From the NCBI GenBank assembly GCA_050953885.1, contig JBMNNJ010000001.1, positions 399,437 to 463,436 on the forward strand: a stretch of DNA of 64,000 nt. Reading direction: 5' to 3'. The translations under genes and the position numbers were made by a program. Positions within the stretch are counted from its first letter, which is position 1. Every line of letters starts with the position of its first letter. The stretch comes from Patescibacteria group bacterium (GTDB taxonomy: Bacteria > Patescibacteriota > Microgenomatia > 0-14-0-10-38-17). Under the pieces are notes generated by a model. It was given only the letters and a program-made list of their open reading frames with translations, was not told the origin of the DNA and made no database searches. Of the stretch, positions 46,130 to 64,000 are shown one piece after another.

Positions 46130-46340
46130 GATAGTCTTATAATAAATTAGATTTTTTGGGGTAATTTTTCCCTTTTTTAAAAAAATTTTTTCTGAATTTT
46201 TTTTGGCAATTTTTCAAAAATTTTTCTGAAATTTTTTTATTTTCTTAAAACTTTTTATTATTTTTTTTCAATTTTTAATTTTTAATAAAAAAATTTAATA
46301 AATTTTAAAAAGTTTTAATAAATTTAAAAAAATCTTTCTT
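46130..46340. promoter_or_regulatory. Extremely AT-rich, phased A/T-tract low-complexity region upstream of the giant-protein locus. It may be a curved-DNA upstream region or the boundary of an acquired segment.
   Basis: Runs of aaaaatttttt / ttttttaaaa repeat for ~200 nt. No ORF. Sequence character changes sharply between the flanks. Confidence 0.4.
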
Positions 46341-46720
46341 AAGAACCCTACCCTCCTTCTTCTTTCCACTTCTTAATATTAAGATGTCTTAATTTACCTT
46401 TTGATATGCGGCTAAAATTCGCATGAAATTCATGTGAAAAAATACCCGCAAACTTCTGCGGTAATTACTAAAGCTATTTCTCCATTTTTAGGGCCTATCT
46501 AAAACCATCAAAATATATCAACTTTAAAAAATAGGGGACTTGACAAACATTTTATAATAGTGTACGCTTTTTATAATTCTGATAATTTATGATAATTTAA
46601 GGCTAAAATTTTATTACCGCAAAAATCATGAACAATCAAAAGGCATCAAACCAAATAGTAGACTTTCTTACTGTTTTTTTGATTTTTTTAATGAGTTTTA
46701 TTTGGCTGTTTATTTAACAT

Positions 46721-47203
46721 ATGCCCCAAACCCTGCTCTCCTCTTTCCGGCTTTATCTTAAAGCCCAAGGGAAAAAGGAAAACACCATCAGGAATTATCT
46801 TCAGGACATTGATCACTTTTTCTCTTGGCTTTCCTCCCAAATTAAAGATTCTTCACTGCAAGCGCTTCTTAACGACCCTAACAAAATAGCTCAAAACATA
46901 ACGGTTAAAAATTTAACTGTCTATCAGCGATTTTTGGAAAAAAATGAAGTTTCCCCTACCACTATCAACCGCCGCCTTTCCTCTCTTCGCCAATTGACAA
47001 AGTTTTTCCTTTCTCAAGGTTGGTTAAAAGAAGACCCAATAAAAAAATTAGCCAATATCTCCATTGAAAAAGAAACCGATAAAACTTCGCAAATTCTGGA
47101 AAAGTTTGCCAAAGCGCTTGAAGAAGAAGGGAAAAGCAAAACCACCATTAGAAATTATCTTTCTGACGTGAAGGGGTTTTTGGAATGGCACGAAAAAGAT
47201 TAA
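46721..47203 (+). CDS. Small protein made of tandem phage-integrase-N-terminal-like (SAM-like/core-binding) modules, with no catalytic domain
   Basis: Three ~35-aa modules of the pattern FxxYLxxxGxSxxTIxxYLxxxxxFxxW: SFRLYLKAQGKKENTIRNYLQDIDHFFSWL, VYQRFLEKNEVSPTTINRRLSSLRQLTKFF and LEKFAKALEEEGKSKTTIRNYLSDVKGFLEW. Confidence 0.5.
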   Translation: MPQTLLSSFRLYLKAQGKKENTIRNYLQDIDHFFSWLSSQIKDSSLQALLNDPNKIAQNITVKNLTVYQRFLEKNEVSPTTINRRLSSLRQLTKFFLSQGWLKEDPIKKLANISIEKETDKTSQILEKFAKALEEEGKSKTTIRNYLSDVKGFLEWHEKD

Positions 47204-47215
47204 AAAGTTAAAAAA

Positions 47216-47776
47216 ATGACCAACAGAATTATTTTGCCTCACGGCAATTATCGTCAGCTTAAATCGTTCCAAACTACAACAATTATTTACGATTTCACGA
47301 TGGCTTTTTGTAATCAATACCGGTCCCTCCTGACTTACAAGAACTACGAGCAAATGATCGGTGGTGCCAGATCGGGTAAGCAAAATATCGCCGAAGGCAG
47401 TCAGGTTTCTGGCACTTCTAAAAAAACAGAGATAAAACTTACCAGCGTTGCCCGTGGGTCACTTGAAGAATTGCTTCAAGATTGCCTTGATTTTCTTCGC
47501 CAAAACAATCTTGTTTTGTGGGATAAAAACGATCCCCGGGCTATTACCATCCGCAAGATTGCTTATAAGCCTGATCGGTCTTATGAGTCCTACAAGTCCT
47601 ATCTTAAAGACCCGGAAAGCGCCGTCAACTGCCTAATTTGCTTAATTCATCAGGCTAATTTTCTTCTTGACCGTCAGCTTGAAGCTTTAGAAAAAGATTT
47701 TTTAGAAAATGGCGGCTTCACTGAAAGGCTTTATCGGGAAAGAAGCGAAGCAAGAAAAAAGCAAAAATATGACTAA
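47216..47776 (+). CDS. Four-helix-bundle protein (23S rRNA intervening-sequence protein / Avd-like family), long form
   Basis: Family motifs NIAEGS...S and ARGSLEEL in the expected spacing. The stop overlaps the start of the giant gene (ATGACTAA). Confidence 0.55.
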   Translation: MTNRIILPHGNYRQLKSFQTTTIIYDFTMAFCNQYRSLLTYKNYEQMIGGARSGKQNIAEGSQVSGTSKKTEIKLTSVARGSLEELLQDCLDFLRQNNLVLWDKNDPRAITIRKIAYKPDRSYESYKSYLKDPESAVNCLICLIHQANFLLDRQLEALEKDFLENGGFTERLYRERSEARKKQKYD

Positions 47777-50700
47777 TAGGACTAATAGGACCAATAATAG
47801 GACCAACTCAGCGGGCTTTTTAGAACCATTGCAAATTCAGGCTTACCTGAAAAGGCTTAAAAAGGAAGGGGCTTCTCCGGCCACTCTTAAACGCAAGGAG
47901 GCGGCCTTAAAAAAATTCCAAAGCTGGCAGGGAAAAGAATACGGACCAAAGTATCCCTTGCCAAAAGGCGCCCCTAAGCCCAAAAAGATAATCTCTAAGA
48001 AGGGAATTTTCCCCAAGGCTTTTCCTCCTTTTTTAAGATATTTTTCTTTCCTAATCGGTTTGGTGCTTTTGGCTAGTTTAGGCTGGGGAGTTTATAGCCA
48101 ATTTTTTGCCCAGCCGAAAGAAACCCCCTCCATGGCCTTCCCTACTAACCCGCCGCTCTTAATTTCTTTTCAGGGTCAGCTTACCGATGATGACGGCACT
48201 CCGATTAATGCCACTATTCCTGCCATTTTCCGCCTTTATAATGTGGACGAGGGTGGTACCGCTCTTTGGGAAGAGCAAAAAAATGTCTCCACCGACCAGG
48301 ACGGCATTTTCAATACTTTCTTGGGTGACACCGCCACGCTGGATCCGGCCATTTTTCGCGACAATATGAATCTTTGGCTGGCAATTGAAATCGACAACGA
48401 CGGGGAAATGGAACCCCGTCAGCAAATTGCCACCGTGGGCTATGCTTTCAATTCCCGCTATCTTCAAGGTTATGAGGCCACCACAGCAGCTACCGCTAAC
48501 ACCATACCGGTTATTAATGCCGATGGCGATTTAATTTTAGCCTCCTCCTCTCCCGCCATTGAAGCCACCTCCGGCACCTTTGGCCTTAAAGGCGAAGCGA
48601 TTACTATTCAATCAACCGGCGGCACGGGCGGCGGGGATATTTTAATTCAGCCCGATGCCGATACCCAAGGACAGGTAATTATCTACTCGGCAACTACCGC
48701 CGACAATTCTTTTACCGTTCAAAATAGCAATATCACCACTGGCTCGCTAATTTATGGCGAGGCCGGTACTAGCGCTAGCGGTTATAACCTGCTAAAACTT
48801 ACCTCCGGAAGCCTTTTAACCGATAAGTTTGTGGTTGACTATGCCGGCAACACCGACATCGCCGGCAACTTAACCGTTGACAGTTCCGGATTTTTTGGCA
48901 ATAGTGTCGGCATCGGCACCACCAGCCCCGGGGCAACCTTGGATGTTAACGGCAACTTACGAATTGGCACCCTGACAACAGGCTCCACCGATACCGTCTT
49001 AACCCACTCCAACAATATTGTCCAGCAAAGAACAATTGATCCCCGGGTTTGGGGGGAAACCTTGGTAGACGGCAGCGGTAGTGCCGGCTATGTGGCCTAC
49101 TGGCAGGATGCCAATACCCTGACGGGGGAGCAATACCTCGCCACCTCAAGAGGTGGCACCGGCGATGACACCTCCTCTACCACTGGTGTCCCCTACATTT
49201 CTTCCGGCAACTGGCAATATGAATCAAGTTTAAATGTGAGCCGGGGCGGCACTGGGTTTTCTTCTTTAGCAGCTGGCTCCCTAATCTACGGTTCCGGCTC
49301 CTCCCCAATGAACGCTTTAGCAATTGGCACTACTAACTATGTTTTAACCTCCAATGGTTCTGCTCCTAACTGGTCACTAATTAGCCAGGCAAATATCAGT
49401 CCTGATTCTCTAGACTTTGACCAATTCCAGGATACCCTAGATCTGGATACTGACTTAGTCTTAAATCAAGCCGCTTACACCTGGACGCAAAACTTTACCG
49501 GAGCAACTACTACCGGCTTAACTTACAACGCTAATGCTTTAACTTCAGGAAAAGGGGTATATGTTTCTTCTACTTCAACTGGTTTAACAGGAAACTTGGC
49601 AGAAATAAGTCTGTCGGGAAACAATGCCGCCAACACCGGTAATGTTTTAAGACTGGCCCAAACTGGCGCCTTATCAGCGGCAATTCCTTTAATGGTGACC
49701 AATCTTGGCGCCGGCGCTTCCTTCAGGGTTAACGATGAAACGGGCGACAATGACAGCACCCCCTTTATTATTGATGCTTCCGGCGCTGTGGGGGTGGGAA
49801 CAGCCATGCCAAACGCCTCGGCAATTCTTGATTTAACTTCAACCGCCAAGGGCTTTCTTGCTCCAAGAATGACTACCAGCCAAAGAGATGCTATTGTTAA
49901 CCCCGCCGCCGGCCTTTTAATCTATAACACCACCACCAATCAATATAACATGTATAACGGCACGGGCTGGACTCTTATTGGCGGCGGAGATGTTTCTTGG
50001 AGTAGCTTAATTGACCCGACAGAAAATCTCTTGCTAAACCATGGGGCCTACACCACCACCTTTACCTGGGGAGCCTCAACCGGAGCTAATAACCTCTTTA
50101 CCCTTACCGATACGGCCAACAATACCGGCACGGGCTACCTTTTAAACCTTAATACCGCCACGGGGTCAAGTCTTAAACCTTTAAGGGTGGCTTCGGCCGG
50201 AGTTGAGGCTTTGGCCATCGATGCCGCCGGCAATGTGGGGATCGGGACAACGAGCCCGGGAGAAAAGTTGGATGTAGTTGGAGCAATCCGTTCCAGTGGA
50301 GTCGATGTATCATCTTTAAATCCAGGAACAAGCACCACCGGAGGTTTATATTTAGGTGCACATATGGGACACCTTATACTTGACTTAAGAAATAATGATT
50401 CCAATGACTCAATTGCTTTCCGATATTCAGCGGCAAACAACACAGTAGTAGATACTATTGGTCTAGTTATGAAAGGCGGAACTGGCAACGTCGGCATCGG
50501 CACCACCAGCCCCGGGGCAACCTTGGATGTTAACGGCAACTTACGAATTGGCACCCTGACAACAGGCTCCACCGATACCGTCTTAACCCACTCCAACAAT
50601 ATTGTCCAGCAAAGAACAATTGATCCCCGGGTTTGGGGGGAAACCTTGGTAGACGGCAGCGGTAGTGCCGGCTATGTGGCCTACTGGCAGGATGCCAATA

Positions 50701-53700
50701 CCCTGACGGGGGAGCAATACCTCGCCACCTCAAGAGGTGGCACCGGCGATGACACCTCCTCTACCACTGGTGTCCCCTACATTTCTTCCGGCAACTGGCA
50801 ATATGAATCAAGTTTAAATGTGAGCCGGGGCGGCACTGGGTTTTCTTCTTTAGCAGCTGGCTCCCTAATCTACGGTTCCGGCTCCTCCCCAATGAACGCT
50901 TTAGCAATTGGCACTACTAACTATGTTTTAACCTCCAATGGTTCTGCTCCTAACTGGTCACTAATTAGCCAGGCAAATATCAGTCCTGATTCTCTAGACT
51001 TTGACCAATTCCAGGATACCCTAGATCTGGATACTGACTTAGTCTTAAATCAAGCCGCTTACACCTGGACGCAAAACTTTACCGGAGCAACTACTACCGG
51101 CTTAACTTACAACGCTAATGCTTTAACTTCAGGAAAAGGGGTATATGTTTCTTCTACTTCAACTGGTTTAACAGGAAACTTGGCAGAAATAAGTCTGTCG
51201 GGAAACAATGCCGCCAACACCGGTAATGTTTTAAGACTGGCCCAAACTGGCGCCTTATCAGCGGCAATTCCTTTAATGGTGACCAATCTTGGCGCCGGCG
51301 CTTCCTTCAGGGTTAACGATGAAACGGGCGACAATGACAGCACCCCCTTTATTATTGATGCTTCCGGCGCTGTGGGGGTGGGAACAGCCATGCCAAACGC
51401 CTCGGCAATTCTTGATTTAACTTCAACCGCCAAGGGCTTTCTTGCTCCAAGAATGACTACCAGCCAAAGAGATGCTATTGTTAACCCCGCCGCCGGCCTT
51501 TTAATCTATAACACCACCACCAATCAATATAACATGTATAACGGCACGGGCTGGACTCTTATTGGCGGCGGAGATGTTTCTTGGAGTAGCTTAATTGACC
51601 CGACAGAAAATCTCTTGCTAAACCATGGGGCCTACACCACCACCTTTACCTGGGGAGCCTCAACCGGAGCTAATAACCTCTTTACCCTTACCGATACGGC
51701 CAACAATACCGGCACGGGCTACCTTTTAAACCTTAATACCGCCACGGGGTCAAGTCTTAAACCTTTAAGGGTGGCTTCGGCCGGAGTTGAGGCTTTGGCC
51801 ATCGATGCCGCCGGCAATGTGGGGATCGGGACAACGAGCCCGGGAGAAAAGTTGGATGTAGTTGGAGCAATCCGTTCCAGTGGAGTCGATGTATCATCTT
51901 TAAATCCAGGAACAAGCACCACCGGAGGTTTATATTTAGGTGCACATATGGGACACCTTATACTTGACTTAAGAAATAATGATTCCAATGACTCAATTGC
52001 TTTCCGATATTCAGCGGCAAACAACACAGTAGTAGATACTATTGGTCTAGTTATGAAAGGCGGAACTGGCAACGTCGGCATCGGCACCACCAGCCCCGGG
52101 GCAACCTTGGATGTTAACGGCAACTTACGAATTGGCACCCTGACAACAGGCTCCACCGATACCGTCTTAACCCACTCCAACAATATTGTCCAGCAAAGAA
52201 CAATTGATCCCCGGGTTTGGGGGGAAACCTTGGTAGACGGCAGCGGTAGTGCCGGCTATGTGGCCTACTGGCAGGATGCCAATACCCTGACGGGGGAGCA
52301 ATACCTCGCCACCTCAAGAGGTGGCACCGGCGATGACACCTCCTCTACCACTGGTGTCCCCTACATTTCTTCCGGCAACTGGCAATATGAATCAAGTTTA
52401 AATGTGAGCCGGGGCGGCACTGGGTTTTCTTCTTTAGCAGCTGGCTCCCTAATCTACGGTTCCGGCTCCTCCCCAATGAACGCTTTAGCAATTGGCACTA
52501 CTAACTATGTTTTAACCTCCAATGGTTCTGCTCCTAACTGGTCACTAATTAGCCAGGCAAATATCAGTCCTGATTCTCTAGACTTTGACCAATTCCAGGA
52601 TACCCTAGATCTGGATACTGACTTAGTCTTAAATCAAGCCGCTTACACCTGGACGCAAAACTTTACCGGAGCAACTACTACCGGCTTAACTTACAACGCT
52701 AATGCTTTAACTTCAGGAAAAGGGGTATATGTTTCTTCTACTTCAACTGGTTTAACAGGAAACTTGGCAGAAATAAGTCTGTCGGGAAACAATGCCGCCA
52801 ACACCGGTAATGTTTTAAGACTGGCCCAAACTGGCGCCTTATCAGCGGCAATTCCTTTAATGGTGACCAATCTTGGCGCCGGCGCTTCCTTCAGGGTTAA
52901 CGATGAAACGGGCGACAATGACAGCACCCCCTTTATTATTGATGCTTCCGGCGCTGTGGGGGTGGGAACAGCCATGCCAAACGCCTCGGCAATTCTTGAT
53001 TTAACTTCAACCGCCAAGGGCTTTCTTGCTCCAAGAATGACTACCAGCCAAAGAGATGCTATTGTTAACCCCGCCGCCGGCCTTTTAATCTATAACACCA
53101 CCACCAATCAATATAACATGTATAACGGCACGGGCTGGACTCTTATTGGCGGCGGAGATGTTTCTTGGAGTAGCTTAATTGACCCGACAGAAAATCTCTT
53201 GCTAAACCATGGGGCCTACACCACCACCTTTACCTGGGGAGCCTCAACCGGAGCTAATAACCTCTTTACCCTTACCGATACGGCCAACAATACCGGCACG
53301 GGCTACCTTTTAAACCTTAATACCGCCACGGGGTCAAGTCTTAAACCTTTAAGGGTGGCTTCGGCCGGAGTTGAGGCTTTGGCCATCGATGCCGCCGGCA
53401 ATGTGGGGATCGGGACAACGAGCCCGGGAGAAAAGTTGGATGTAGTTGGAGCAATCCGTTCCAGTGGAGTCGATGTATCATCTTTAAATCCAGGAACAAG
53501 CACCACCGGAGGTTTATATTTAGGTGCACATATGGGACACCTTATACTTGACTTAAGAAATAATGATTCCAATGACTCAATTGCTTTCCGATATTCAGCG
53601 GCAAACAACACAGTAGTAGATACTATTGGTCTAGTTATGAAAGGCGGAACTGGCAACGTCGGCATCGGCACCACCAGCCCCGGGGCAACCTTGGATGTTA

Positions 53701-56700
53701 ACGGCAACTTACGAATTGGCACCCTGACAACAGGCTCCACCGATACCGTCTTAACCCACTCCAACAATATTGTCCAGCAAAGAACAATTGATCCCCGGGT
53801 TTGGGGGGAAACCTTGGTAGACGGCAGCGGTAGTGCCGGCTATGTGGCCTACTGGCAGGATGCCAATACCCTGACGGGGGAGCAATACCTCGCCACCTCA
53901 AGAGGTGGCACCGGCGATGACACCTCCTCTACCACTGGTGTCCCCTACATTTCTTCCGGCAACTGGCAATATGAATCAAGTTTAAATGTGAGCCGGGGCG
54001 GCACTGGGTTTTCTTCTTTAGCAGCTGGCTCCCTAATCTACGGTTCCGGCTCCTCCCCAATGAACGCTTTAGCAATTGGCACTACTAACTATGTTTTAAC
54101 CTCCAATGGTTCTGCTCCTAACTGGTCACTAATTAGCCAGGCAAATATCAGTCCTGATTCTCTAGACTTTGACCAATTCCAGGATACCCTAGATCTGGAT
54201 ACTGACTTAGTCTTAAATCAAGCCGCTTACACCTGGACGCAAAACTTTACCGGAGCAACTACTACCGGCTTAACTTACAACGCTAATGCTTTAACTTCAG
54301 GAAAAGGGGTATATGTTTCTTCTACTTCAACTGGTTTAACAGGAAACTTGGCAGAAATAAGTCTGTCGGGAAACAATGCCGCCAACACCGGTAATGTTTT
54401 AAGACTGGCCCAAACTGGCGCCTTATCAGCGGCAATTCCTTTAATGGTGACCAATCTTGGCGCCGGCGCTTCCTTCAGGGTTAACGATGAAACGGGCGAC
54501 AATGACAGCACCCCCTTTATTATTGATGCTTCCGGCGCTGTGGGGGTGGGAACAGCCATGCCAAACGCCTCGGCAATTCTTGATTTAACTTCAACCGCCA
54601 AGGGCTTTCTTGCTCCAAGAATGACTACCAGCCAAAGAGATGCTATTGTTAACCCCGCCGCCGGCCTTTTAATCTATAACACCACCACCAATCAATATAA
54701 CATGTATAACGGCACGGGCTGGACTCTTATTGGCGGCGGAGATGTTTCTTGGAGTAGCTTAATTGACCCGACAGAAAATCTCTTGCTAAACCATGGGGCC
54801 TACACCACCACCTTTACCTGGGGAGCCTCAACCGGAGCTAATAACCTCTTTACCCTTACCGATACGGCCAACAATACCGGCACGGGCTACCTTTTAAACC
54901 TTAATACCGCCACGGGGTCAAGTCTTAAACCTTTAAGGGTGGCTTCGGCCGGAGTTGAGGCTTTGGCCATCGATGCCGCCGGCAATGTGGGGATCGGGAC
55001 AACGAGCCCGGGAGAAAAGTTGGATGTAGTTGGAGCAATCCGTTCCAGTGGAGTCGATGTATCATCTTTAAATCCAGGAACAAGCACCACCGGAGGTTTA
55101 TATTTAGGTGCACATATGGGACACCTTATACTTGACTTAAGAAATAATGATTCCAATGACTCAATTGCTTTCCGATATTCAGCGGCAAACAACACAGTAG
55201 TAGATACTATTGGTCTAGTTATGAAAGGCGGAACTGGCAACGTCGGCATCGGCACCACCAGCCCCGGGGCAACCTTGGATGTTAACGGCAACTTACGAAT
55301 TGGCACCCTGACAACAGGCTCCACCGATACCGTCTTAACCCACTCCAACAATATTGTCCAGCAAAGAACAATTGATCCCCGGGTTTGGGGGGAAACCTTG
55401 GTAGACGGCAGCGGTAGTGCCGGCTATGTGGCCTACTGGCAGGATGCCAATACCCTGACGGGGGAGCAATACCTCGCCACCTCAAGAGGTGGCACCGGCG
55501 ATGACACCTCCTCTACCACTGGTGTCCCCTACATTTCTTCCGGCAACTGGCAATATGAATCAAGTTTAAATGTGAGCCGGGGCGGCACTGGGTTTTCTTC
55601 TTTAGCAGCTGGCTCCCTAATCTACGGTTCCGGCTCCTCCCCAATGAACGCTTTAGCAATTGGCACTACTAACTATGTTTTAACCTCCAATGGTTCTGCT
55701 CCTAACTGGTCACTAATTAGCCAGGCAAATATCAGTCCTGATTCTCTAGACTTTGACCAATTCCAGGATACCCTAGATCTGGATACTGACTTAGTCTTAA
55801 ATCAAGCCGCTTACACCTGGACGCAAAACTTTACCGGAGCAACTACTACCGGCTTAACTTACAACGCTAATGCTTTAACTTCAGGAAAAGGGGTATATGT
55901 TTCTTCTACTTCAACTGGTTTAACAGGAAACTTGGCAGAAATAAGTCTGTCGGGAAACAATGCCGCCAACACCGGTAATGTTTTAAGACTGGCCCAAACT
56001 GGCGCCTTATCAGCGGCAATTCCTTTAATGGTGACCAATCTTGGCGCCGGCGCTTCCTTCAGGGTTAACGATGAAACGGGCGACAATGACAGCACCCCCT
56101 TTATTATTGATGCTTCCGGCGCTGTGGGGGTGGGAACAGCCATGCCAAACGCCTCGGCAATTCTTGATTTAACTTCAACCGCCAAGGGCTTTCTTGCTCC
56201 AAGAATGACTACCAGCCAAAGAGATGCTATTGTTAACCCCGCCGCCGGCCTTTTAATCTATAACACCACCACCAATCAATATAACATGTATAACGGCACG
56301 GGCTGGACTCTTATTGGCGGCGGAGATGTTTCTTGGAGTAGCTTAATTGACCCGACAGAAAATCTCTTGCTAAACCATGGGGCCTACACCACCACCTTTA
56401 CCTGGGGAGCCTCAACCGGAGCTAATAACCTCTTTACCCTTACCGATACGGCCAACAATACCGGCACGGGCTACCTTTTAAACCTTAATACCGCCACGGG
56501 GTCAAGTCTTAAACCTTTAAGGGTGGCTTCGGCCGGAGTTGAGGCTTTGGCCATCGATGCCGCCGGCAATGTGGGAATTGGGACGACGAGTCCGGGGGCA
56601 AAGCTACATGTAAATGCTGGTGCAGCACAATTGACAATGGAAAGAGATGAAACCCACATTAACACATGGGATTTCAGAATCACTCAGGAGGCGGGCATCT

Positions 56701-59700
56701 CTGCAAACTCCCTATACCTGAGAGCGTCAGAAAATACAGCCGACTTTGGAATAAGGGCAGCTAATTCTGGGAACGTCCAGTTCATTTTGAAGGGCCCAAC
56801 AGGCAACGTCGGCATCGGGACGACGGCGCCGGGGGCGAAGCTTGATGTTAACGGAACGGGTAGGTTTGCCACTTCCGTGTCTTCGCCTCTTTTTCAAGGT
56901 GATACCGGGGCGGTTACCTTTGGCAATGCTTCCTATGCCACCACCATTGCCGGTTCAGGATTAACCATCTCTCCTACTGCCTGGACAGCCACTCCTACCA
57001 TATCAGGGCTTATTACCGCTACTTTAGGATTAACCGCCAATGGAGCCTTAACCGCCAACAGCACCTTCACTTTAGGAGACGGCGCTGATGCCGGTTCGGT
57101 TAATACCTCAAGTTGGGATATCTCCACCACTGGCGTCGCCTCGGGATTTACCGGCCTTACTTCCTCCGGCACGATCACCTTCTCTTCTCTGGCCGCCAAC
57201 CGACTGGTGACCACCACCACAGGAGGAGAACTAACCACCAGCGCCGAGGGGACTGTCGGCCAGCCCTTACTTTCCGGAGGGACATCCTCCCCCAACTGGG
57301 GGACTCTTGGTCTGGTTTATGGCGGTACCAATGCCGATCTTTCCGGGGTGGCCCAAGGAGGGCTAATTTACAAGGAAACTTCCGCCTTAGCCGGCACCGG
57401 GGCCTTAACGGGAATTCTTCAGGGAAATAACGCCAGCGCCCCCACCGCCATCACCGGCACCGCCAATTATCTGCCCAAATGGTCCTCAACCGCCCCTTAC
57501 CTCACCACCGCTTCCCAAATTTTCGACAGCGGCGCTAATGTCGGCATTGGCAATAGCAATCCTCAAGCCCTGCTTCATGTGGGCGCCGGCGGCACGCCCA
57601 ATTATGCTTCAAGCGGCGATGTTTATATCCAAAACGATCTCGAAGTGGACGGCACCATTTACGGCGCGCTGGATATTACCGACGCCACTTTTGACTTTTT
57701 GGAAGTTAAGCGGGCGGCCACTTTCTCCGCCCAAATCGCCTCGGATATTCCCATTACCGTTAAAAACACCGGCGGCAATGAGGTGGCGCGGTTCACCAAC
57801 GAGGGCAAGCTAAGACTTGGTTCTGCCGGCGCGCCCACCGACACTTTAGATATTGATGGCGACGCTGATATTTCCGGCAACTTGGATGTGGGCAATGGCC
57901 TTGATGTTTTAGGCGCCAACTTCACCGTCGGCGGCGCTAACTTTACCGTTAGCCAAGCCGGCACGGTGACCGGCGGCACCTACAACGGCCAAACTATTTC
58001 CTCCACTGCCAGCTTTACCGGCACTCTTAGCGTCGCTTCAACCTTCAACGCTAATAGCAATGTGGGCTTGGGAAACGAAGCCACCGACACCATCAACGCC
58101 GCCGGGCAATTTGTCTCCGGCCTTATCCCCCAAACAAACAGTTATAACCTTGGCTCCCCCACTAACCACTGGGGCGCTTTGTACGTTGATTCCATTTACG
58201 GCGGTCAGGTGGGCGAATTTGACTTTCTTAAGGCCCGGGGCGCCACCCTCTCGGCCGAAATCCCCACCGACAAAACCTTGGTTTTGGAAGGCCTTGCTTC
58301 CGGCCATACCGCCAATTTAATTGAAGCCAACGCCAACGGCGCCACCGCTCTCACCCTCTCCCCGGCCGGCAATTTAACCTTAGGAGGAACGATAACTTTA
58401 CCCAACGGTAACACCTTAACCGGCGTGGCTTCTTATATTCAATTTAACAATGGCATAAGCGTTGGCGGGGGAACCACCTATCGGCTCACCTCCACTGGCG
58501 ACGCATATCTTAATAATCTCTACACCGGCGGAACGCAAAGGCTTTCTTCAACCGGCGCCCTTGCCAACATTACCGACTACAGCCAATCCTCCGGCAATTT
58601 CGCCATTTCGGGAACTGGCACTTTCTCTACCGCCACCGGCAATATCTCCCTAAATGGAGCCACCACCGTAGCCGACGGCAAATCTTTCACCGCCAACGGG
58701 CCGGTGACCTTGGGCGACGGGGGCGATGCGGTGGCCATTAACAGCAACATTTGGGATATTACCTCGGCCGGCGTCGCTTCCGGCTTAACCCAATTAACCG
58801 TTGACAACCTCCAGCTTGACGGCAACACTCTTTCTTCAACCACGGACAACATTACTCTTGACGCCGCCGCTTACTTGGTGATTGCCGACCAAATTGCCTC
58901 AAGCTTAATTCCTTCCGCCACCAACACTTATGATTTGGGCTCCCCGGAGAACTACTGGGACGATGCTTACATCAACACTTTAACCGCTAATTCGCTAAAT
59001 TTTGATTTTATCGCCGCCCGCGGCGCCACTTTTTCGGCCGAAATCCCCACCGACAAAACCTTGGTTCTTAATGCCGCTACCGGCCAAACCGCCAATCTTT
59101 TGGAAATCAATTCCGCCCCCGGCGCCAGCGGCGACTTAATGGTGGTCACCGGCGGCGGCAATGTCGGCATTGGCAACAGCAATCCGGGAACATATAAATT
59201 AGATGTGGCGGGCACGGGAAGATTTAATTCCACCGCTAATCCGGGGTTAACGGTTGGCAACGGCGCTATTGGCTATTTAAAAATTGGCGGCTCAACTATT
59301 TATGATAACAACAGCGACTTAACTTTAGACTCCGATACTGCCTTGGTGATTTTAGCCGATGATTTGCAAATTAACGGCAATGATATTTATGATTCCGGCG
59401 CAAACCAGAGAATCAATTTGGGCGCCACCACCACTTTATACAACACCACCACCATCCTTTCGGGCACCACCGCCTTAACCGCCTCTTCCTTGGCAACCTT
59501 TACCACCGCCTCCTCTTTGGCAATGCCCGCCACCACCTCTTTAACCTTAGGCGGTTCAGCAACCATCTACGGCGGCACGACGGCTTCAGGAACACTAACT
59601 CTTCAGTCAACTTCAAACGCCACCAAAGGCAATATCCTAATTAATCCTTCTGGCGGCAATGTCGGCATCGGGACGACGGGGCCGGGGGCGAAATTATCTA

Positions 59701-62700
59701 TTAATGGCTCGCCAGCGATAGAGTTTGCTTCTTGCGGGACTTCTTACGGAGGTTGTTATATCAAGGAAGGATGGGGCCCTGAATTATATTCCAATACATC
59801 GCAACCTTTTCAAGTTTTAAATACTTCACTTTTGGTTGGATATGACCAAACAGATTCAACCGCCAGAGGAAGCGGTAATTTACTCGTAAGCGGCAATGTC
59901 GGCATCGGGACGACGGGGCCGAACACTGAACTAAGTTTAAATCACGGTTATATAAATTTTGAGCCCTCGCTAACCTCGTGGCTAAAAACTGGAGGAGAAG
60001 GAATACTTATGTGGAACTCTAATGATATTGAGTGGCTCGAATCAACATACGAGAGCGGATACGGCCACAGATTATATTCCATCGATCCTGGGGCAGGTGC
60101 AGTTACACACCTTCGGCTAGCCGCAAGAAATAACTCTGCCTCGTGGACAGATATGGTTACTTTTGTTTCTAACGGCAACGTCGGCATCGGGACGACGGGG
60201 CCACAACATAAATTACATATTTATACGACAACCGCACAAGAGGGAATAATTATTAACGCTGGCACTTATCCAGAAATCAGATTTGAAGAGGCTGGAACAG
60301 TAAGAGGCTATCTTAGCGTTGCTGGAAGCGCAGGAGGATATGGAACAGGCACATTAGCTGATTCTATGATACTTCGCGCTGAAGGTAATATGCATCTTAT
60401 TACGAATGCAGGGACTGTGGTACAAACATTAACCAGTGGCGGCAATGTGGGCATTGGGACAACAACTCCGGGGGCAAGACTGGATGTTAACGGCAATTTA
60501 AAAATCGCCACCCTGACAACCGGCGCCACCAATACGGTTTTAACCCACAGCGGCAATATTGTCCAGCAAAGAACCATTGATTCCCGAGTTTGGGGATCAG
60601 CGTTGGTTGATTATTCCGGCACCTCGGCTAACTACATTCCCAAAATGCTTGACGCCGACACGATTACCAATTCCCTAATTTACGAAGCCGCCAGCAGCCG
60701 CCGCATCGGCATTAGCACCACCAGCCCGGGTTCAAAATTAACCGTTGCCGGCGGCGCTTCCTATTTTGGCGCCCTGCCTGCCCCCACCGGAGTAGTGGCC
60801 ACTCCCACCTCGGGAGGCGGCTTAGTGGCGGGAACTTACTATTATGTGGTCAACGCCTTTGACAGCAACAACCTTTCCTCAAACAAATCAAGCCAGGTTT
60901 CCTGCACGGTTGATGGCTCTACCACCACCGCCTGCCAAATTTCCTGGGTGGCCGTTCCCGGCGCCACCAACTACCGCGTTTACGGCAGAGCCAGCAACGC
61001 CCAAAACCAATACTGGCAAACCACTTCTCTCTACTACACCGACACCGGCGCCGCCGGCGCCAGCGACACGCCGCCGGGACCAATCTCCGCTTTCTTTACC
61101 GGCAATATAAAAGCGGAACGCTTTGCGGATTCGGCTAACGACACCTACTACCTTGATCCGGCCTATGCCACTCTTTCCCTCACCACCGCCGGAGCGGCGG
61201 GCATCGGCTACTCGGCCGGCCAGATGAGCGGTGCCACCGCCAAGCTGGCCGTTGACGGCAATGTGGGAATTGGGACGACGAGTCCGGGGGCAAAGCTACA
61301 TGTAAATGCTGGTGCAGCACAATTGACAATGGAAAGAGATGAAACCCACATTAACACATGGGATTTCAGAATCACTCAGGAGGCGGGCATCTCTGCAAAC
61401 TCCCTATACCTGAGAGCGTCAGAAAATACAGCCGACTTTGGAATAAGGGCAGCTAATTCTGGGAACGTCCAGTTCATTTTGAAGGGCCCAACAGGCAACG
61501 TCGGCATCGGGACAGTTTTCGGCGAAGCAGATACTACAGGAAAATTGAACGTAAGAAAAGATAGCACAGCAGATGGAATGATTAGCGATGTTCTTACGTT
61601 GCGCAATCATTGGCATACCGTTACTAATATAGGAACTGGAATTGCATTGAGATTTAAACAAGGATCAACCAGCGAAACCGGAAAGCTTGTTGATATTGGT
61701 TCAATTGCTGAAAGTGGGTGGAGCAACGCAGTCGGTTTCTTTGTTAAGACTGGTGGTACTGAAAGGTTAAGAATAAGTAACGGCGGCAACGTCGGCATCG
61801 GGACAGCGAGTCCAAGTTACCCACTACACGTATATAAAAATGCAGGTGACTGGACGGCGCGCTTCCAAAACACTTCGGGATCCATAGATATTGGACCAGC
61901 CAATGGTAGTGGAGCCCACATTTATACAGACCTAAGCCAATTTTTCTTTAATCAACCCATTACCCTCACGGGCACCAGCAGTATTTCTTCTTATTCCACG
62001 AATAATCTCTATCTTAAAACAGGTACGCAGGCTAACACAAGGATGACAATTCTTGCTAGTAATGGCAATGTCGGCATCGGGACGACGGGGCCTGTTCAAA
62101 AATTGCATGTTGAAGGCAATTGTGTAACGGGAGATACAAAGTTAGCAATTTTTGAGGATCACAGTTCACAGTTCACAGTTCACAGCAATGCTCCTTCAGA
62201 GCAGATCACAGATCACAGATCACAGTTCACGGAAATACAAATAAAGGATATAAAATCAGGAACAAAAGTATATTCGCTAAATCAAGAAACTGGGAAACTA
62301 GAACCTGCTAGGATCAACAAACTTCTTGACATGGGAACAAAGCCTGTATTTAAATTAACTACAGAGGGTGGAAAAGAGATTCGCACCACTGGCAACCACC
62401 CATATCTTGCCCAACTATCTTATGAACAATACCAGCAAAGAGTTCAACTTCGAGAAACTGGAAGTTTGGAAGAAGAGTATGGCCTTAGTCAAGGCGATCT
62501 ATCAGTTGCTCGAGAGTTTTCCCAAACACGAGAGGTATGGTCTAGTGGATCAACTTCGCCGAGCAGCAACCTCAATTCTTCTGAATATCGCCGAGGGGAA
62601 CGGGAGGTACAGCCACAAGGAATTTATCCAATTTCTCTATCAGGCCAGGGGCAGTCTCTACGAGGTGGTGGCTTGTCTCAAACTAACTCAAGAGCTGGGT

Positions 62701-64000
62701 TACTTAACTCAGCAACAGATTACTCCTCTACTCCAACAGACTCACGAGATCAACAGGATGCTCTCGGGGCTGATCAATTATCTCAAGAAGAAAGCTGGCA
62801 AAGCCAGCTAAATCACGGTTCACCGTTCACGGATCACAGATGGGTGAAGGTGATTTATTTATCTCCAGGTGACTCTATTGCTACCGCTTCTTTCTGTGAA
62901 CCAAGAACAGTGAACGGTGAACCACGAGCCGAAGGCGAGTATAACTCCCGTGAACTACGATCTGTGAACTGTGAACCATACGTTGTTTGGGACAAAATCG
63001 TTTCCATCGAGTATGTTGGCTATGAGCAGGTCTATGACATAGAGGTTGAGGGCACGCATAACTTTGTTGCTAATGGAATTTTGGCCCATAACACGTATAT
63101 TAGCGGCAATGTCGGCATCGGGACGACGAGTCCGGGGTACAAACTAGACGTAAATGGAACACTAAACGCCACATCAATCTATGAGAACGGAACACCGCTC
63201 TCTAACAGTTATAGCAACGTTGTTTATAAATATGGGCCAACAGGTTTAAATGGAGCGGCCACTAGTGATTTTGGATTAAGAATTACTCACTCAACTGGTG
63301 ATACCAGTCACGCTGACCATGGTTCTTATTTAGTTAACATTAAAAGCAGGTACATTGATGAAACGTGGCTTTTCTACTTAGCATCTGAATATCTCGGGGC
63401 ATACAAGTATAATATAGAGCGGGTGGGTGGGCATACGAACAGCGTTACCGCAGTACTGGTAACAAATACTAGTACGAGTTTTCAATTAGAACTGCAAACA
63501 TCAGGATCACAAAATGACTGGCATAGCGTAACGGTCACTAGAGTTGGGTATTCTCAGTCCGGTAATCCAACGTTTAGTTACATTGATTCCACAGCATTTA
63601 GTGCTGGTACTACTGTTGGTAGGAAATCTTGGATTGGGAATAACAATGGTGGAACAAGTACTTACTATAGCGGCAACGTCGGCATCGGGACGACGAGTCC
63701 AGGGTATACACTACATGTTAACGGCACGGCCAATATCGGCTCTTCTTTATACGTTGCCGGCAACCAACGCTTTAATTCCTCCGGCGCTCTTATTCCCCAT
63801 ACCGTTTCTTCAACCACTAAATTTACTAACCTTAACGCCGATATGGTTGACGGTTATAGCTACTCCTCCTCTTGGCCAAATGCCTCAAATACTGTCCTGC
63901 GTTCAGGCTCCACTACAAACTACATACCAAAATGGAGCGGAACCTATACCCTAACTAATTCAATTATCTACGATAACGGCACCAATGTCGGCATCGGGAC
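47769..64000 (+). CDS. Giant tail-fibre-like repeat surface protein, more than 5,400 codons in the window and still open at the window end
   Basis: The frame of 47769 (positions divisible by 3) has no listed stop to 64000. Hand translation of several long stretches confirmed it is open. N-terminal integrase-CB-like module (IQAYLKRLKKEGASPATLKRKEAALKKFQSW), a TM anchor (FLIGLVLLASLGWGVY), then modules with the GNVGIGTTxPxxKL(D/H)VNG motif. Also LAPRMTTSQRDAIVNPAAGLLIYNTTTNQYNMYNGTGW, and an FN3 segment (YYYVVNAFDSNN...ISWVAVPGATNYRVYG). All ORF-track entries in this span are in other frames or antisense. Confidence 0.85.
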   Translation, partial: MTNRTNRTNNRTNSAGFLEPLQIQAYLKRLKKEGASPATLKRKEAALKKFQSWQGKEYGPKYPLPKGAPKPKKIISKKGIFPKAFPPFLRYFSFLIGLVLLASLGWGVYSQFFAQPKETPSMAFPTNPPLLISFQGQLTDDDGTPINATIPAIFRLYNVDEGGTALWEEQKNVSTDQDGIFNTFLGDTATLDPAIFRDNMNLWLAIEIDNDGEMEPRQQIATVGYAFNSRYLQGYEATTAATANTIPVINADGDLILASSSPAIEATSGTFGLKGEAITIQSTGGTGGGDILIQPDADTQGQVIIYSATTADNSFTVQNSNITTGSLIYGEAGTSASGYNLLKLTSGSLLTDKFVVDYAGNTDIAGNLTVDSSGFFGNSVGIGTTSPGATLDVNGNLRIGTLTTGSTDTVLTHSNNIVQQRTIDPRVWGETLVDGSGSAGYVAYWQDANTLTGEQYLATSRGGTGDDTSSTTGVPYISSGNWQYESSLNVSRGGTGFSSLAAGSLIYGSGSSPMNALAIGTTNYVLTSNGSAPNWSLISQANISPDSLDFDQFQDTLDLDTDLVLNQAAYTWTQNFTGATTTGLTYNANALTSGKGVYVSSTSTGLTGNLAEISLSGNNAANTGNVLRLAQTGALSAAIPLMVTNLGAGASFRVNDETGDNDSTPFIIDASGAVGVGTAMPNASAILDLTSTAKGFLAPRMTTSQRDAIVNPAAGLLIYNTTTNQYNMYNGTGWTLIGGGDVSWSSLIDPTENLLLNHGAYTTTFTWGASTGANNLFTLTDTANNTGTGYLLNLNTATGSSLKPLRVASAGVEALAIDAAGNVGIGTTSPGEKLDVVGAIRSSGVDVSSLNPGTSTTGGLYLGAHMGHLILDLRNNDSNDSIAFRYSAANNTVVDTIGLVMKGGTGNVGIGTTSPGATLDVNGNLRIGTLTTGSTDTVLTHSNNIVQQRTIDPRVWGETLVDGSGSAGYVAYWQDANTLTGEQYLATSRGGTGDDTSSTTGVPYISSGNWQYESSLNVSRGGTGFSSLAAGSLIYGSGSSPMNALAIGTTNYVLTSNGSAPNWSLISQANISPDSLDFDQFQDTLDLDTDLVLNQAAYTWTQNFTGATTTGLTYNANALTSGKGVYVSSTSTGLTGNLAEISLSGNNAANTGNVLRLAQTGALSAAIPLMVTNLGAGASFRVNDETGDNDSTPFIIDASGAVGVGTAMPNASAILDLTSTAKGFLAPRMTTSQRDAIVNPAAGLLIYNTTTNQYNMYNGTGWTLIGGGDVSWSSLIDPTENLLLNHGAYTTTFTWGASTGANNLFTLTDTANNTGTGYLLNLNTATGSSLKPLRVASAGVEALAIDAAGNVGIGTTSPGEKLDVVGAIRSSGVDVSSLNPGTSTTGGLYLGAHMGHLILDLRNNDSNDSIAFRYSAANNTVVDTIGLVMKGGTGNVGIGTTSPGATLDVNGNLRIGTLTTGSTDTVLTHSNNIVQQRTIDPRVWGETLVDGSGSAGYVAYWQDANTLTGEQYLATSRGGTGDDTSSTTGVPYISSGNWQYESSLNVSRGGTGFSSLAAGSLIYGSGSSPMNALAIGTTNYVLTSNGSAPNWSLISQANISPDSLDFDQFQDTLDLDTDLVLNQAAYTWTQNFTGATTTGLTYNANALTSGKGVYVSSTSTGLTGNLAEISLSGNNAANTGNVLRLAQTGALSAAIPLMVTNLGAGASFRVNDETGDNDSTPFIIDASGAVGVGTAMPNASAILDLTSTAKGFLAPRMTTSQRDAIVNPAAGLLIYNTTTNQYNMYNGTGWTLIGGGDVSWSSLIDPTENLLLNHGAYTTTFTWGASTGANNLFTLTDTANNTGTGYLLNLNTATGSSLKPLRVASAGVEALAIDAAGNVGIGTTSPGEKLDVVGAIRSSGVDVSSLNPGTSTTGGLYLGAHMGHLILDLRNNDSNDSIAFRYSAANNTVVDTIGLVMKGGTGNVGIGTTSPGATLDVNGNLRIGTLTTGSTDTVLTHSNNIVQQRTIDPRVWGETLVDGSGSAGYVAYWQDANTLTGEQYLATSRGGTGDDTSSTTGVPYISSGNWQYESSLNVSRGGTGFSSLAAGSLIYGSGSSPMNALAIGTTNYVLTSNGSAPNWSLISQANISPDSLDFDQFQDTLDLDTDLVLNQAAYTWTQNFTGATTTGLTYNANALTSGKGVYVSSTSTGLTGNLAEISLSGNNAANTGNVLRLAQTGALSAAIPLMVTNLGAGASFRVNDETGDNDSTPFIIDASGAVGVGTAMPNASAILDLTSTAKGFLAPRMTTSQRDAIVNPAAGLLIYNTTTNQYNMYNGTGWTLIGGGDVSWSSLIDPTENLLLNHGAYTTTFTWGASTGANNLFTLTDTANNTGTGYLLNLNTATGSSLKPLRVASAGVEALAIDAAGNVGIGTTSPGEKLDVVGAIRSSGVDVSSLNPGTSTTGGLYLGAHMGHLILDLRNNDSNDSIAFRYSAANNTVVDTIGLVMKGGTGNVGIGTTSPGATLDVNGNLRIGTLTTGSTDTVLTHSNNIVQQRTIDPRVWGETLVDGSGSAGYVAYWQDANTLTGEQYLATSRGGTGDDTSSTTGVPYISSGNWQYESSLNVSRGGTGFSSLAAGSLIYGSGSSPMNALAIGTTNYVLTSNGSAPNWSLISQANISPDSLDFDQFQDTLDLDTDLVLNQAAYTWTQNFTGATTTGLTYNANALTSGKGVYVSSTSTGLTGNLAEISLSGNNAANTGNVLRLAQTGALSAAIPLMVTNLGAGASFRVNDETGDNDSTPFIIDASGAVGVGTAMPNASAILDLTSTAKGFLAPRMTTSQRDAIVNPAAGLLIYNTTTNQYNMYNGTGWTLIGGGDVSWSSLIDPTENLLLNHGAYTTTFTWGASTGANNLFTLTDTANNTGTGYLLNLNTATGSSLKPLRVASAGVEALAIDAAGNVGIGTTSPGAKLHVNAGAAQLTMERDETHINTWDFRITQEAGISANSLYLRASENTADFGIRAANSGNVQFILKGPTGNVGIGTTAPGAKLDVNGTGRFATSVSSPLFQGDTGAVTFGNASYATTIAGSGLTISPTAWTATPTISGLITATLGLTANGALTANSTFTLGDGADAGSVNTSSWDISTTGVASGFTGLTSSGTITFSSLAANRLVTTTTGGELTTSAEGTVGQPLLSGGTSSPNWGTLGLVYGGTNADLSGVAQGGLIYKETSALAGTGALTGILQGNNASAPTAITGTANYLPKWSSTAPYLTTASQIFDSGANVGIGNSNPQALLHVGAGGTPNYASSGDVYIQNDLEVDGTIYGALDITDATFDFLEVKRAATFSAQIASDIPITVKNTGGNEVARFTNEGKLRLGSAGAPTDTLDIDGDADISGNLDVGNGLDVLGANFTVGGANFTVSQAGTVTGGTYNGQTISSTASFTGTLSVASTFNANSNVGLGNEATDTINAAGQFVSGLIPQTNSYNLGSPTNHWGALYVDSIYGGQVGEFDFLKARGATLSAEIPTDKTLVLEGLASGHTANLIEANANGATALTLSPAGNLTLGGTITLPNGNTLTGVASYIQFNNGISVGGGTTYRLTSTGDAYLNNLYTGGTQRLSSTGALANITDYSQSSGNFAISGTGTFSTATGNISLNGATTVADGKSFTANGPVTLGDGGDAVAINSNIWDITSAGVASGLTQLTVDNLQLDGNTLSSTTDNITLDAAAYLVIADQIASSLIPSATNTYDLGSPENYWDDAYINTLTANSLNFDFIAARGATFSAEIPTDKTLVLNAATGQTANLLEINSAPGASGDLMVVTGGGNVGIGNSNPGTYKLDVAGTGRFNSTANPGLTVGNGAIGYLKIGGSTIYDNNSDLTLDSDTALVILADDLQINGNDIYDSGANQRINLGATTTLYNTTTILSGTTALTASSLATFTTASSLAMPATTSLTLGGSATIYGGTTASGTLTLQSTSNATKGNILINPSGGNVGIGTTGPGAKLSINGSPAIEFASCGTSYGGCYIKEGWGPELYSNTSQPFQVLNTSLLVGYDQTDSTARGSGNLLVSGNVGIGTTGPNTELSLNHGYINFEPSLTSWLKTGGEGILMWNSNDIEWLESTYESGYGHRLYSIDPGAGAVTHLRLAARNNSASWTDMVTFVSNGNVGIGTTGPQHKLHIYTTTAQEGIIINAGTYPEIRFEEAGTVRGYLSVAGSAGGYGTGTLADSMILRAEGNMHLITNAGTVVQTLTSGGNVGIGTTTPGARLDVNGNLKIATLTTGATNTVLTHSGNIVQQRTIDSRVWGSALVDYSGTSANYIPKMLDADTITNSLIYEAASSRRIGISTTSPGSKLTVAGGASYFGALPAPTGVVATPTSGGGLVAGTYYYVVNAFDSNNLSSNKSSQVSCTVDGSTTTACQISWVAVPGATNYRVYGRASNAQNQYWQTTSLYYTDTGAAGASDTPPGPISAFFTGNIKAERFADSANDTYYLDPAYATLSLTTAGAAGIGYSAGQMSGATAKLAVDGNVGIGTTSPGAKLHVNAGAAQLTMERDETHINTWDFRITQEAGISANSLYLRASENTADFGIRAANSGNVQFILKGPTGNVGIGTVFGEADTTGKLNVRKDSTADGMISDVLTLRNHWHTVTNIGTGIALRFKQGSTSETGKLVDIGSIAESGWSNAVGFFVKTGGTERLRISNGGNVGIGTASPSYPLHVYKNAGDWTARFQNTSGSIDIGPANGSGAHIYTDLSQFFFNQPITLTGTSSISSYSTNNLYLKTGTQANTRMTILASNGNVGIGTTGPVQKLHVEGNCVTGDTKLAIFEDHSSQFTVHSNAPSEQITDHRSQFTEIQIKDIKSGTKVYSLNQETGKLEPARINKLLDMGTKPVFKLTTEGGKEIRTTGNHPYLAQLSYEQYQQRVQLRETGSLEEEYGLSQGDLSVAREFSQTREVWSSGSTSPSSNLNSSEYRRGEREVQPQGIYPISLSGQGQSLRGGGLSQTNSRAGLLNSATDYSSTPTDSRDQQDALGADQLSQEESWQSQLNHGSPFTDHRWVKVIYLSPGDSIATASFCEPRTVNGEPRAEGEYNSRELRSVNCEPYVVWDKIVSIEYVGYEQVYDIEVEGTHNFVANGILAHNTYISGNVGIGTTSPGYKLDVNGTLNATSIYENGTPLSNSYSNVVYKYGPTGLNGAATSDFGLRITHSTGDTSHADHGSYLVNIKSRYIDETWLFYLASEYLGAYKYNIERVGGHTNSVTAVLVTNTSTSFQLELQTSGSQNDWHSVTVTRVGYSQSGNPTFSYIDSTAFSAGTTVGRKSWIGNNNGGTSTYYSGNVGIGTTSPGYTLHVNGTANIGSSLYVAGNQRFNSSGALIPHTVSSTTKFTNLNADMVDGYSYSSSWPNASNTVLRSGSTTNYIPKWSGTYTLTNSIIYDNGTNVGIG
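48906..56575 (+). repeat. Perfect tandem array of five 1,584-bp coding units (528 aa each; the fifth is ~0.84 of a unit) inside the giant gene
   Basis: Unit starts at 48906, 50490, 52074, 53658 and 55242. The ORF-track antisense ORFs recur with an exact 1,584-bp period and identical sequences. Sequence diverges at about 56575. Confidence 0.9.
56558..56820 (+). repeat. Copy 1 of an exact ~252-bp duplication inside the giant gene. Copy 2 is at 61255-61507.
   Basis: By eye, identical from ggcaatgtgggaattgggacgacgagtccgggggcaaagctacatg ... to ggcaacgtcggcatcggga in both places. Confidence 0.85.
62157..62990 (+). repeat. Heptamer (TTCACAG/CTGTGAA) direct and inverted repeat blocks that bracket the intein interior and the nested four-helix-bundle ORF
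   Basis: Left block 62157-62231 (cacagttcacagttcacagttcacag...cacagatcacagatcacagttcacgg). Right blocks 62811-62843 (direct), 62893-62923 and 62949-62978 (inverted: ctgtgaactgtgaacc). These allow a long-range stem L/R3 and a local hairpin R1/R2. Confidence 0.7.
62422..62811 (+). CDS. Four-helix-bundle protein (23S rRNA intervening-sequence protein / Avd-like family) encoded in the +1 frame inside the intein
   Basis: The ORF-track ORF 62368..62811 contains a near-canonical family sequence: [83 protein letters not shown]. The likely start is MNNTSKEF at 62422. It sits where an intein homing endonuclease would be. Confidence 0.8.
   Translation: [129 protein letters not shown]

Follow-up and report, generated by a model that had tools for sequence, protein, structure and literature searches.

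Two kinds of intervening sequence bear on the locus described here, namely inteins and the intervening sequences (IVSs) of 23S ribosomal RNA (rRNA), the latter lying in helix 25 or 45 of that rRNA. The IVS of Coxiella ends in inverted repeats, which pair as a 28-bp stem that RNase III cuts, and has tandem heptamers at the 5′ end as well as an S23p open reading frame (ORF) (PMC4990558), and rRNA insertions in bacteria of the candidate phyla radiation (CPR) carry 23S_rRNA_IVP ORFs (PMC11270868). For inteins, homing endonucleases encoded out of frame or antisense have been reported only recently, in the inteins of actinobacteriophages by Gosselin, Arsenault and Gogarten (bioRxiv 10.1101/2025.01.02.630785) and, going by its title, in a preprint on a cyanobacterial dnaX intein (bioRxiv 10.64898/2026.09.14.751524). 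Here, we describe a locus that joins three known kinds of feature, an intein, a nested out-of-frame gene and a cassette of the rRNA-IVS type. It lies near the end of a stretch of 64,000 nucleotides from a Patescibacteria group bacterium (GCA_050953885.1, contig JBMNNJ010000001.1, positions 399,437 to 463,436), which we refer to as the window and whose coordinates are used throughout, while numbers of the type L001 denote loci from other genomes. In our judgement, the locus is probably a composite of two nested selfish elements, an intein and an IVS-type cassette, residing in a giant CPR surface-protein gene.

The outer element is a true class-1 intein with all catalytic motifs and a DnaB-type HINT fold, and its splicing is predicted. 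Its reading frame, recognized from motifs, profiles and a structural model, occupies 62121-63092 on the plus strand as 324 stop-free codons, and the host-frame translation reads CVTGDTKLAI ... TTGNHPYL ... VYDIEVEGTHNFVANGILAHN, followed by Thr. Block A (CVTGDTKLAI, 62121-62150) opens with the Cys1 nucleophile (codon 62121-62123), which is invariant across 46 aligned members of the intein family; T3 and D5 likewise do not vary in the family alignment. The core of the N-terminal splicing domain (62237-62412), placed by this alignment and the model, contains block B (TTGNHPYL, 62385-62408), in which T89, T90, N92, H93, P94 and Y95 show no variation in the family. The same two sources place the conserved HINT strands WVKVIYLSPGDSIA (62841-62882), where the splicing domain resumes after an insert, and, together with the profiles, the C-terminal splicing region (62979-63092), which carries blocks F and G (VYDIEVEGTHNFVANGILAHN, 63030-63092). 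The intein ends in ...ILAHN, followed by T (63078-63095), with H323 and N324 again invariant in the alignment, and the +1 nucleophile of the C-extein, Thr at 63093-63095, is Thr or Ser in every complete locus.

Profile and structure comparisons agree with the motifs. The Pfam model Intein_splicing (PF14890) matches with an E-value of 3.6e-22 and 79 bits (cut-off 35.8), the NCBIfam models TIGR01445 (intein_Nterm) and TIGR01443 (intein_Cterm) score 34 and 40 bits (cut-offs 24.5 and 15.6), and solved DnaB mini-inteins are matched at the sequence level (4o1r, E 2.8e-20). In an AlphaFold (AF2) model built from 53 sequences, the HINT core has a predicted local distance difference test score (pLDDT) above 90; the best structural matches of this model are the Npu and Ssp DnaB inteins, with a target-normalised template-modelling (TM) score of 0.87 for 4o1r, and DnaB, RecA and DnaX inteins head its Foldseek matches. 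A first-pass annotation of this DNA had called an intein at 62121-63092 with blocks A, B and F/G and a +1 Thr, and had placed it, at a module boundary of the giant fibre protein, exactly between ...GNVGIGTTGPVQKLHVEGN and TYISGNVGIGTTSP...; translation, profiles and fold bear out the call far beyond chance, and the position is likewise correct. Its further description, an intein without an endonuclease, stands in part. A profile search of the intein-frame protein found no LAGLIDADG or HNH domain, Intein_splicing being the sole match; the slot is nevertheless not empty, since it holds a conserved +1-frame PF05635 gene together with repeat arrays. Both this gene, at 62422-62811, and the five heptamer arrays that the intein contains had been overlooked.

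The nested gene lies on the plus strand, in the +1 frame relative to the intein, with its own ATG four codons past block B and a TAA stop, and encodes a 129-residue four-helix-bundle protein of the S23p family (PF05635/TIGR02436). PF05635, named '23S rRNA-intervening sequence protein', covers it over the full length of the model (E 2.8e-41), TIGR02436 ('four helix bundle protein') matches it with an E-value of 3.1e-40, and the Xanthomonas S23p pentamer in PDB entry 2gsc with 1.6e-22. The profile libraries gave no match to a nuclease family, the defence-system library gave none at all, and an exact-sequence look-up returned no record. Diversity-generating retroelements (DGRs) are frequent in CPR bacteria, where they diversify surface proteins, and their accessory protein Avd shares with the nested protein a four-helix-bundle fold family, for which weak matches were indeed seen. 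The Avd models, however, score below their curated cut-offs (NF033474, 41 bits against 80; PF22296, 34 bits against 40), and no reverse transcriptase was found among the ORFs scanned at 39.6-49.5 kb and in the scanned segments of the giant gene, so that a DGR/Avd identity of the nested gene seems unlikely.

The same +1-frame PF05635 gene sits within the same intein in ten further loci (L001-L006, L010, L019, L051 and L087). Its ORF is intact in all 11 loci, having diverged to 42-79% identity, and the closest known relative, at 79%, is that of L087, a Roizmanbacteria genome whose GenBank contig annotation gives the nested gene only. A check of start codons covered seven of the 11 composites (the window, L001-L005 and L010): each has its ATG or GTG in the same place behind block B, and in six, the window being the exception, +1-frame stops lie just upstream of the four-helix start, an arrangement that argues for independent initiation and not for a frameshift fusion. 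No relics of the gene were found in the intein family members that lack it, and a metagenome scan with the nested protein returned only free-standing relatives (34-51% identity) and no new composites. One composite, L003:831-1700, is missing the last ~21 codons of the intein, blocks F and G among them, and shifts frame into the C-extein, through either decay of the allele or an error of assembly.

Selection maintains dual coding at these loci, acting as purifying selection on the nested protein and constraining the intein frame only to stay open. Ten related loci, seven of them with a four-helix gene complete at both ends, were examined for stops, and in none does the intein frame contain one across the nested gene. 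When the nested gene was resampled synonymously in nine of the loci, 5.6-8.7 stops were expected, with a probability of an open frame of <=4e-4 per locus, and the third, unused frame contains 7-16 stops; as an empirical control, the -1 frame is open in 5 of 83 free-standing four-helix genes. Pairwise identity averages 52.5% in the four-helix frame, whereas the intein frame reaches 32.9% and the unused frame 31.9%, and an intein frame that is hardly better conserved than an unused one points to purifying selection on the nested protein alone. The intein-frame linker over the nested gene is rich in S, Q and G and unconserved in sequence, and the AlphaFold model has low confidence in the overlap, with pLDDT below 50 for intein residues 142-221. 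The locus offers a clean natural example of long dual coding (~390 nt), kept by selection in 11 diverged loci, in which one frame encodes a conserved fold and the other is merely kept open.

The second component of the putative cassette is a set of five TCACAGT-type heptamer arrays (Tandem Repeats Finder, period 7), all annotated on the plus strand. A1 (62157-62189) and A2 (62204-62236) lie in the loop that follows the first strand of the intein; A3 (62811-62843), a direct copy of A1/A2, begins at the final base of the nested gene's stop codon; and A4 (62891-62924) and A5 (62948-62978) are inverted. A3 and A4 form the 5′ and 3′ arms of a local hairpin (-46.6 kcal/mol, z -4.8), and A2, along with A1, pairs with A5 as a long-range inverted repeat over ~715-780 nt. 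Complementarity between A1/A2 and A4/A5 is 86-100%, a joined A1-A2/A5 construct folds with a z of -7.1, and the whole intein with -5.4. The structural model is less confident over the array-coded loops, where pLDDT averaged over ten residues is 57-68, and the loop encoded by A1 reaches 60-66 over intein residues 11-30. Across loci, the arms are tandem arrays that cannot be aligned, and they were assessed by the complementarity within each locus against shuffles: an arm pair occurs at equivalent positions in all complete composite inteins (z 3.9-12.5), the N-arm at ~nt 40-112 of the intein and the C-arm starting ~135-155 nt before its end. The repeat units themselves are unrelated between loci (TCACAGT, GTTCAAA, GGCTCCA, GAAGWKC, GGAAGTGGAGA and GATGAAC). 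An identification of the heptamers with cyanobacterial STRR (short tandemly repeated repetitive) sequences, and with it a cyanobacterial origin of the window, was considered and dropped, since the window's housekeeping proteins are recorded as Patescibacteria, with 90% cluster mates named Woesebacteria and Shapirobacteria, and TCACAGT arms also occur in the Roizmanbacteria intein L087.

Similar arms flank PF05635 genes outside inteins. Among 68 testable free-standing genes from unrelated metagenomes (L093-L172, L089 and L092), 43 are bracketed by inverted short tandem arrays, and in these cassettes the 5′ arm stands directly before the start codon. We know of no description of inverted-array bracketing as a general property of PF05635. 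It suggests that a PF05635 gene and its arms behave as a discrete module, one of which is carried by the window intein. Tandem heptamer arrays are also found in many intergenic regions of the window (1619-1851, 3832-3887, 11771-11931, 26288-26398, 28939-28996 and 43787-43831), and in that at 26288-26398 two adjoining arrays, of AAAGTCA and ACTTTTG, are mutually reverse-complementary; heptamer-array hairpins may thus occur genome-wide, beyond the intein.

The host of the composite is a plus-strand open frame that extends from ~47.77 kb to past the end of the window, over more than 5,400 codons, and encodes a giant repeat protein with GNVGIGTT boxes. The 24-nt box GGCAATGTCGGCATCGGGACGACG is present on both sides of the intein, at 62064-62087 in the N-extein and at 63105-63128 in the C-extein, with 0 mismatches between the two, and occurs 14 times in the giant gene (<=3 mismatches) where 0 occurrences are expected by chance. 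Between the upstream box and the intein lies an N-extein linker, GPVQKLHVEGN (62088-62120), a flank that in every locus examined is seen solely beside the intein: across all loci, each of the 47 occurrences of KLHVEG leads into X-Cys. Relative to an ordinary module, the inserted unit consists of the intein plus ~23 extein codons that duplicate the box, which supports recombination via the boxes as a means of moving the intein between modules. The first-pass annotation had proposed that conserved DNA boxes on either side could mediate such spread, and the identical 24-nt boxes that flank the intein support the proposal. In L001, a second intein copy begins in the same gene. On another Patescibacteria contig, JBMORX010000010.1 (L005 and L011), at least four inteins of the family lie within ~15 kb of giant-protein coding sequence, one of them with the four-helix gene.

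An intein in a surface protein had been remarked on as unusual, and the window intein is in any case no one-off, as its best 80 confirmed matches (79 loci), from species-representative genomes, encode relatives. Their hosts are mostly Patescibacteria, Omnitrophota, Elusimicrobia and DPANN archaea, and the insertion site is identical wherever the flanks can be read: the N-extein ends in ...GNVGIGTTxPxQKLHVEG(Q/N), the intein runs from C to HN, and the C-extein resumes with TYISGNVGIGTT.... This large family of inteins in giant GNVGIGTT-box proteins is apparently undescribed; in the papers that could be searched, no connection of inteins to PF05635, to NYN domains or to Patescibacteria was found. 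A neighbour-joining tree computed from the splicing domains only puts the seven four-helix-bearing inteins complete enough to be placed into one clade, which also has a few members without the four-helix gene (L007, L009, L031 and L027).

Elsewhere in the family, the endonuclease slot is occupied differently. Ten of 46 complete inteins (L049, L053, L057, L059, L066, L068, L069, L075, L079 and L082) have an in-frame NYN domain there (PF01936, best E 1.2e-24) and cluster apart from the four-helix clade; judged from their sequences, they could represent an undescribed class of intein homing nuclease. At least five members contain an antisense ORF of the DUF5615/Mut7-C PIN-like kind inside the intein (PF18480, E 1e-11 to 9e-17), on the minus strand at L041:3336-3758, L039:468-881, L074:1884-2264, L037:3228-3851 and L038:1549-2130. 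Several inteins also have a 70-nt minus-strand element resembling the tRNA-like domain of transfer-messenger RNA (tmRNA), located at L020:3389-3459, L009:3524-3594, L018:3485-3555, L034:3479-3549, L019:3865-3933 and L005:6545-6615. It matches only the ends of the Rfam tmRNA model, namely the acceptor stem with G3:U70 and the T-arm, at 26-38 bits against a gathering score of 47, and ARAGORN found no tRNA in 15 related loci, including the element-bearing L005, L009, L019 and L034. The element co-occurs with the four-helix gene in L019; L087 has only a similar host-frame motif and the window intein has none.

In the reading that we favour, the outer element is a class-1 intein of a family fixed at the GNVGIGTT box, and the inner element would be a PF05635 gene with inverted heptamer arrays lodged in its endonuclease slot. 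The precursor would be translated straight through the cassette, after which the HINT domain would fold around the linker and splice both intein and linker out of the surface protein. By analogy with the RNase III excision that makes rRNA cassettes harmless, a cassette spliced out in this way would cost the host protein nothing. The composite may then move as a unit between GNVGIGTT boxes, through homologous recombination or gene conversion via the identical 24-nt boxes, and we put the chance that the four-helix protein is a passenger at around one half.

Several observations weigh against this scheme. No Shine-Dalgarno sequence precedes the window ATG, and among the seven loci checked AGGAGG is present in L010 only. 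The 5′ arm lies ~190-260 nt upstream of the nested start, in a different HINT loop, so that a simple history in which a cassette dropped into the slot fails to explain the anatomy, and long-range arms are also found in inteins that lack the four-helix gene (L031, L046, L034 and L009). Mismatches within the arms, read on the sense strand, are A.C more often than G.U, by 17 to 4 in the composites, which are related loci, and by 51 to 33 in the free-standing cassettes (p 0.06). As an A.C mismatch on the sense strand is a G.U on the antisense strand, this bias lends no support to a sense-strand RNA stem, and a role at the DNA level or in an antisense transcript is possible. The divergence of the four-helix genes correlates weakly, and overall not significantly, with that of the splicing domains (Pearson 0.42, p 0.056).

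The four-helix protein might instead be a working mobility module that takes over the function of a homing endonuclease, for instance through binding to the hairpin-forming arrays and recruitment of host recombination or nucleases; in a more general form of the idea, PF05635 proteins would move IVS-type cassettes wherever they occur. The gene does fill exactly the endonuclease slot, which in sister clades holds in-frame NYN domains (10 of 46) or antisense DUF5615/Mut7-C PIN-like nucleases (at least five), its ORF is intact and conserved in 11 of 11 loci despite the cost of dual coding, and PF05635 cassettes with inverted arrays are scattered over unrelated genomes, rRNA genes and inteins. However, PF05635 is not known to have any nuclease motif or activity, the clade members without the gene persist, and the nested protein has no match in the defence-system library. 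Out-of-frame and antisense homing endonucleases in inteins provide a precedent (bioRxiv 10.1101/2025.01.02.630785), to which the dnaX intein of 10.64898/2026.09.14.751524 would, by its title, add a similar case; yet solved PF05635 relatives are toroidal pentamers of unknown function, and the S23p protein of Coxiella is apparently not produced in vivo (PMC4990558). On balance, a mobility role seems to us unlikely. We are similarly doubtful that PF05635 proteins and their inverted arms constitute a widespread autonomous mobile cassette with the protein as its mobility factor, adopted here as a homing module, although, if true, this would provide one mechanism for rRNA IVSs and inteins alike and a first function for a family that has been without one since the 1990s. 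A different role for the arrays, as an RNA processing signal, would have RNase III cut the giant mRNA at the stem, freeing a small transcript for translation of the four-helix protein and throttling the output of surface protein. The heptamer-built IVS stems of Coxiella are cut by this enzyme (PMC4990558), and the arms at the present locus fold strongly (z -5.4 for the intein, -4.8 for A3/A4 and -7.1 for A1-A2/A5) and keep their positions while their sequences differ by locus. Such cleavage would, however, destroy a host mRNA in which selection keeps the intein frame translatable, the sense-strand mismatches have no G.U bias, no Rfam family, rRNA included, matches within 46000-64000, and a promoter and terminator scan of 61900-63300 yielded sites no more numerous than in shuffled sequence, with no signal standing out, all of which makes this quite improbable.

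Three further explanations concern the nature of the ORF and of the intein itself. A plain mini-intein that has lost its endonuclease, with the +1 ORF a chance or decaying frame, would account for the lack of a detectable in-frame endonuclease domain and for an in-frame middle that is unconserved and modelled with low confidence. It is refuted by the end-to-end match of the ORF to PF05635 (2.8e-41), the match to 2gsc (1.6e-22), the intact ORF in 11 loci at 42-79% identity and the frame identities, and we accord it almost no probability. Dassa et al. in 2009 reportedly described fractured genes, in which split inteins accompany a free-standing endonuclease, and a separate gene between the N- and C-terminal splicing regions recalls that arrangement, in which the two halves would here be separate genes around a free-standing one. 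This split organization is contradicted by a continuous host frame, both over 62121-63092 and in all related loci, which neither stops after block B nor has to restart before block F and is free of stops in 10 of 10 loci against ~7 expected, and is accordingly hard to credit. A programmed +1 frameshift, by which the four-helix domain would be fused to the N-terminal part of the precursor, seems very improbable as well: the ORF is in the +1 frame at all loci, and in the window that frame stays open upstream as far as a GTG at 62368, but the +1 stops just upstream of the conserved ATG or GTG in six of the seven loci checked leave no room for a shift site.

Around the composite, the giant gene repeats a 1584-bp (528-codon) module five times in tandem at 49523-56600, with the copies nearly identical, and its G+C content is 48-54% against ~42% in the rest of the window. 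Two ORFs precede it: that at 46721-47203 has a phage-integrase SAM-like N-terminal domain only, and that at 47216-47776 (186 residues) gives a PF05635 match that is weak and falls short of the cut-off (E 8e-6, 26 bits). A weak SAM-like match is also seen at the N-terminus of the giant protein.

If the favoured reading of a composite of intein and IVS-type cassette is correct, two classes of intervening sequence that had been thought unrelated are joined, with a cassette of the rRNA-IVS type residing within an intein, and the composite fits a view in which IVS cassettes take up residence wherever the host has a means of clearing them from the product. The S23p/PF05635 family is placed in a homing-endonuclease slot, beside sister inteins with NYN or DUF5615 nucleases, which provides a lead to its function. 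The locus also reveals a large intein family in CPR and DPANN surface proteins that annotation pipelines miscall, to the extent that on one contig the nested gene alone is annotated.

Compared with the DnaB-type class-1 mini-inteins (Npu DnaB, 4o1r, and Ssp DnaB, 1mi8), the window intein has the same Cys1, TxxH, block F Asp, terminal His-Asn and +1 nucleophile and the same HINT fold. It differs in its host, a giant repeat surface protein of a CPR bacterium and not a replication enzyme, in two loops enlarged by heptamer arrays, and in a linker stretch of ~400 nt that doubles as another gene. Bacterial intein-like (BIL) Hint domains occur in variable surface proteins, and in common with them the window element places a Hint-fold domain within a secreted or surface repeat protein; unlike them, it has every intein motif, His-Asn and a conserved +1 Thr among them, and its best scores are against intein models and structures. 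With the fractured genes of Dassa et al. it shares a separate gene lodged between intein halves, whereas here the intein is contiguous and the host frame open throughout.

The non-canonical inteins of bioRxiv 10.1101/2025.01.02.630785 share with the window intein a second ORF between the splicing blocks in another frame, an intein frame that is open and unstructured at that point, and a nested ORF that automatic annotation misses or that leads to the call of a mini-intein. Their nested genes are recognisable nucleases (EndoVII-like, LAGLIDADG or VSR-like), whereas that of the window encodes a PF05635 four-helix bundle with no known catalysis and is accompanied by inverted tandem arrays. The 23S rRNA IVSs of Coxiella, Leptospira and Xanthomonas and the rRNA insertions of CPR bacteria differ from the window element in their host, which here is a protein-coding gene and not helix 25 or 45 of 23S rRNA, in the means of removal, which here would be protein splicing and not RNase III, and in layout, since in the window essential intein codons separate the 5′ arm from the ORF and the DNA is read in two frames. 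What they have in common is a PF05635 protein, 2gsc being the Xanthomonas member, an ORF bracketed by inverted repeats of tandem heptamers, and a host-gene product repaired through removal of the insert, as is predicted for the intein.

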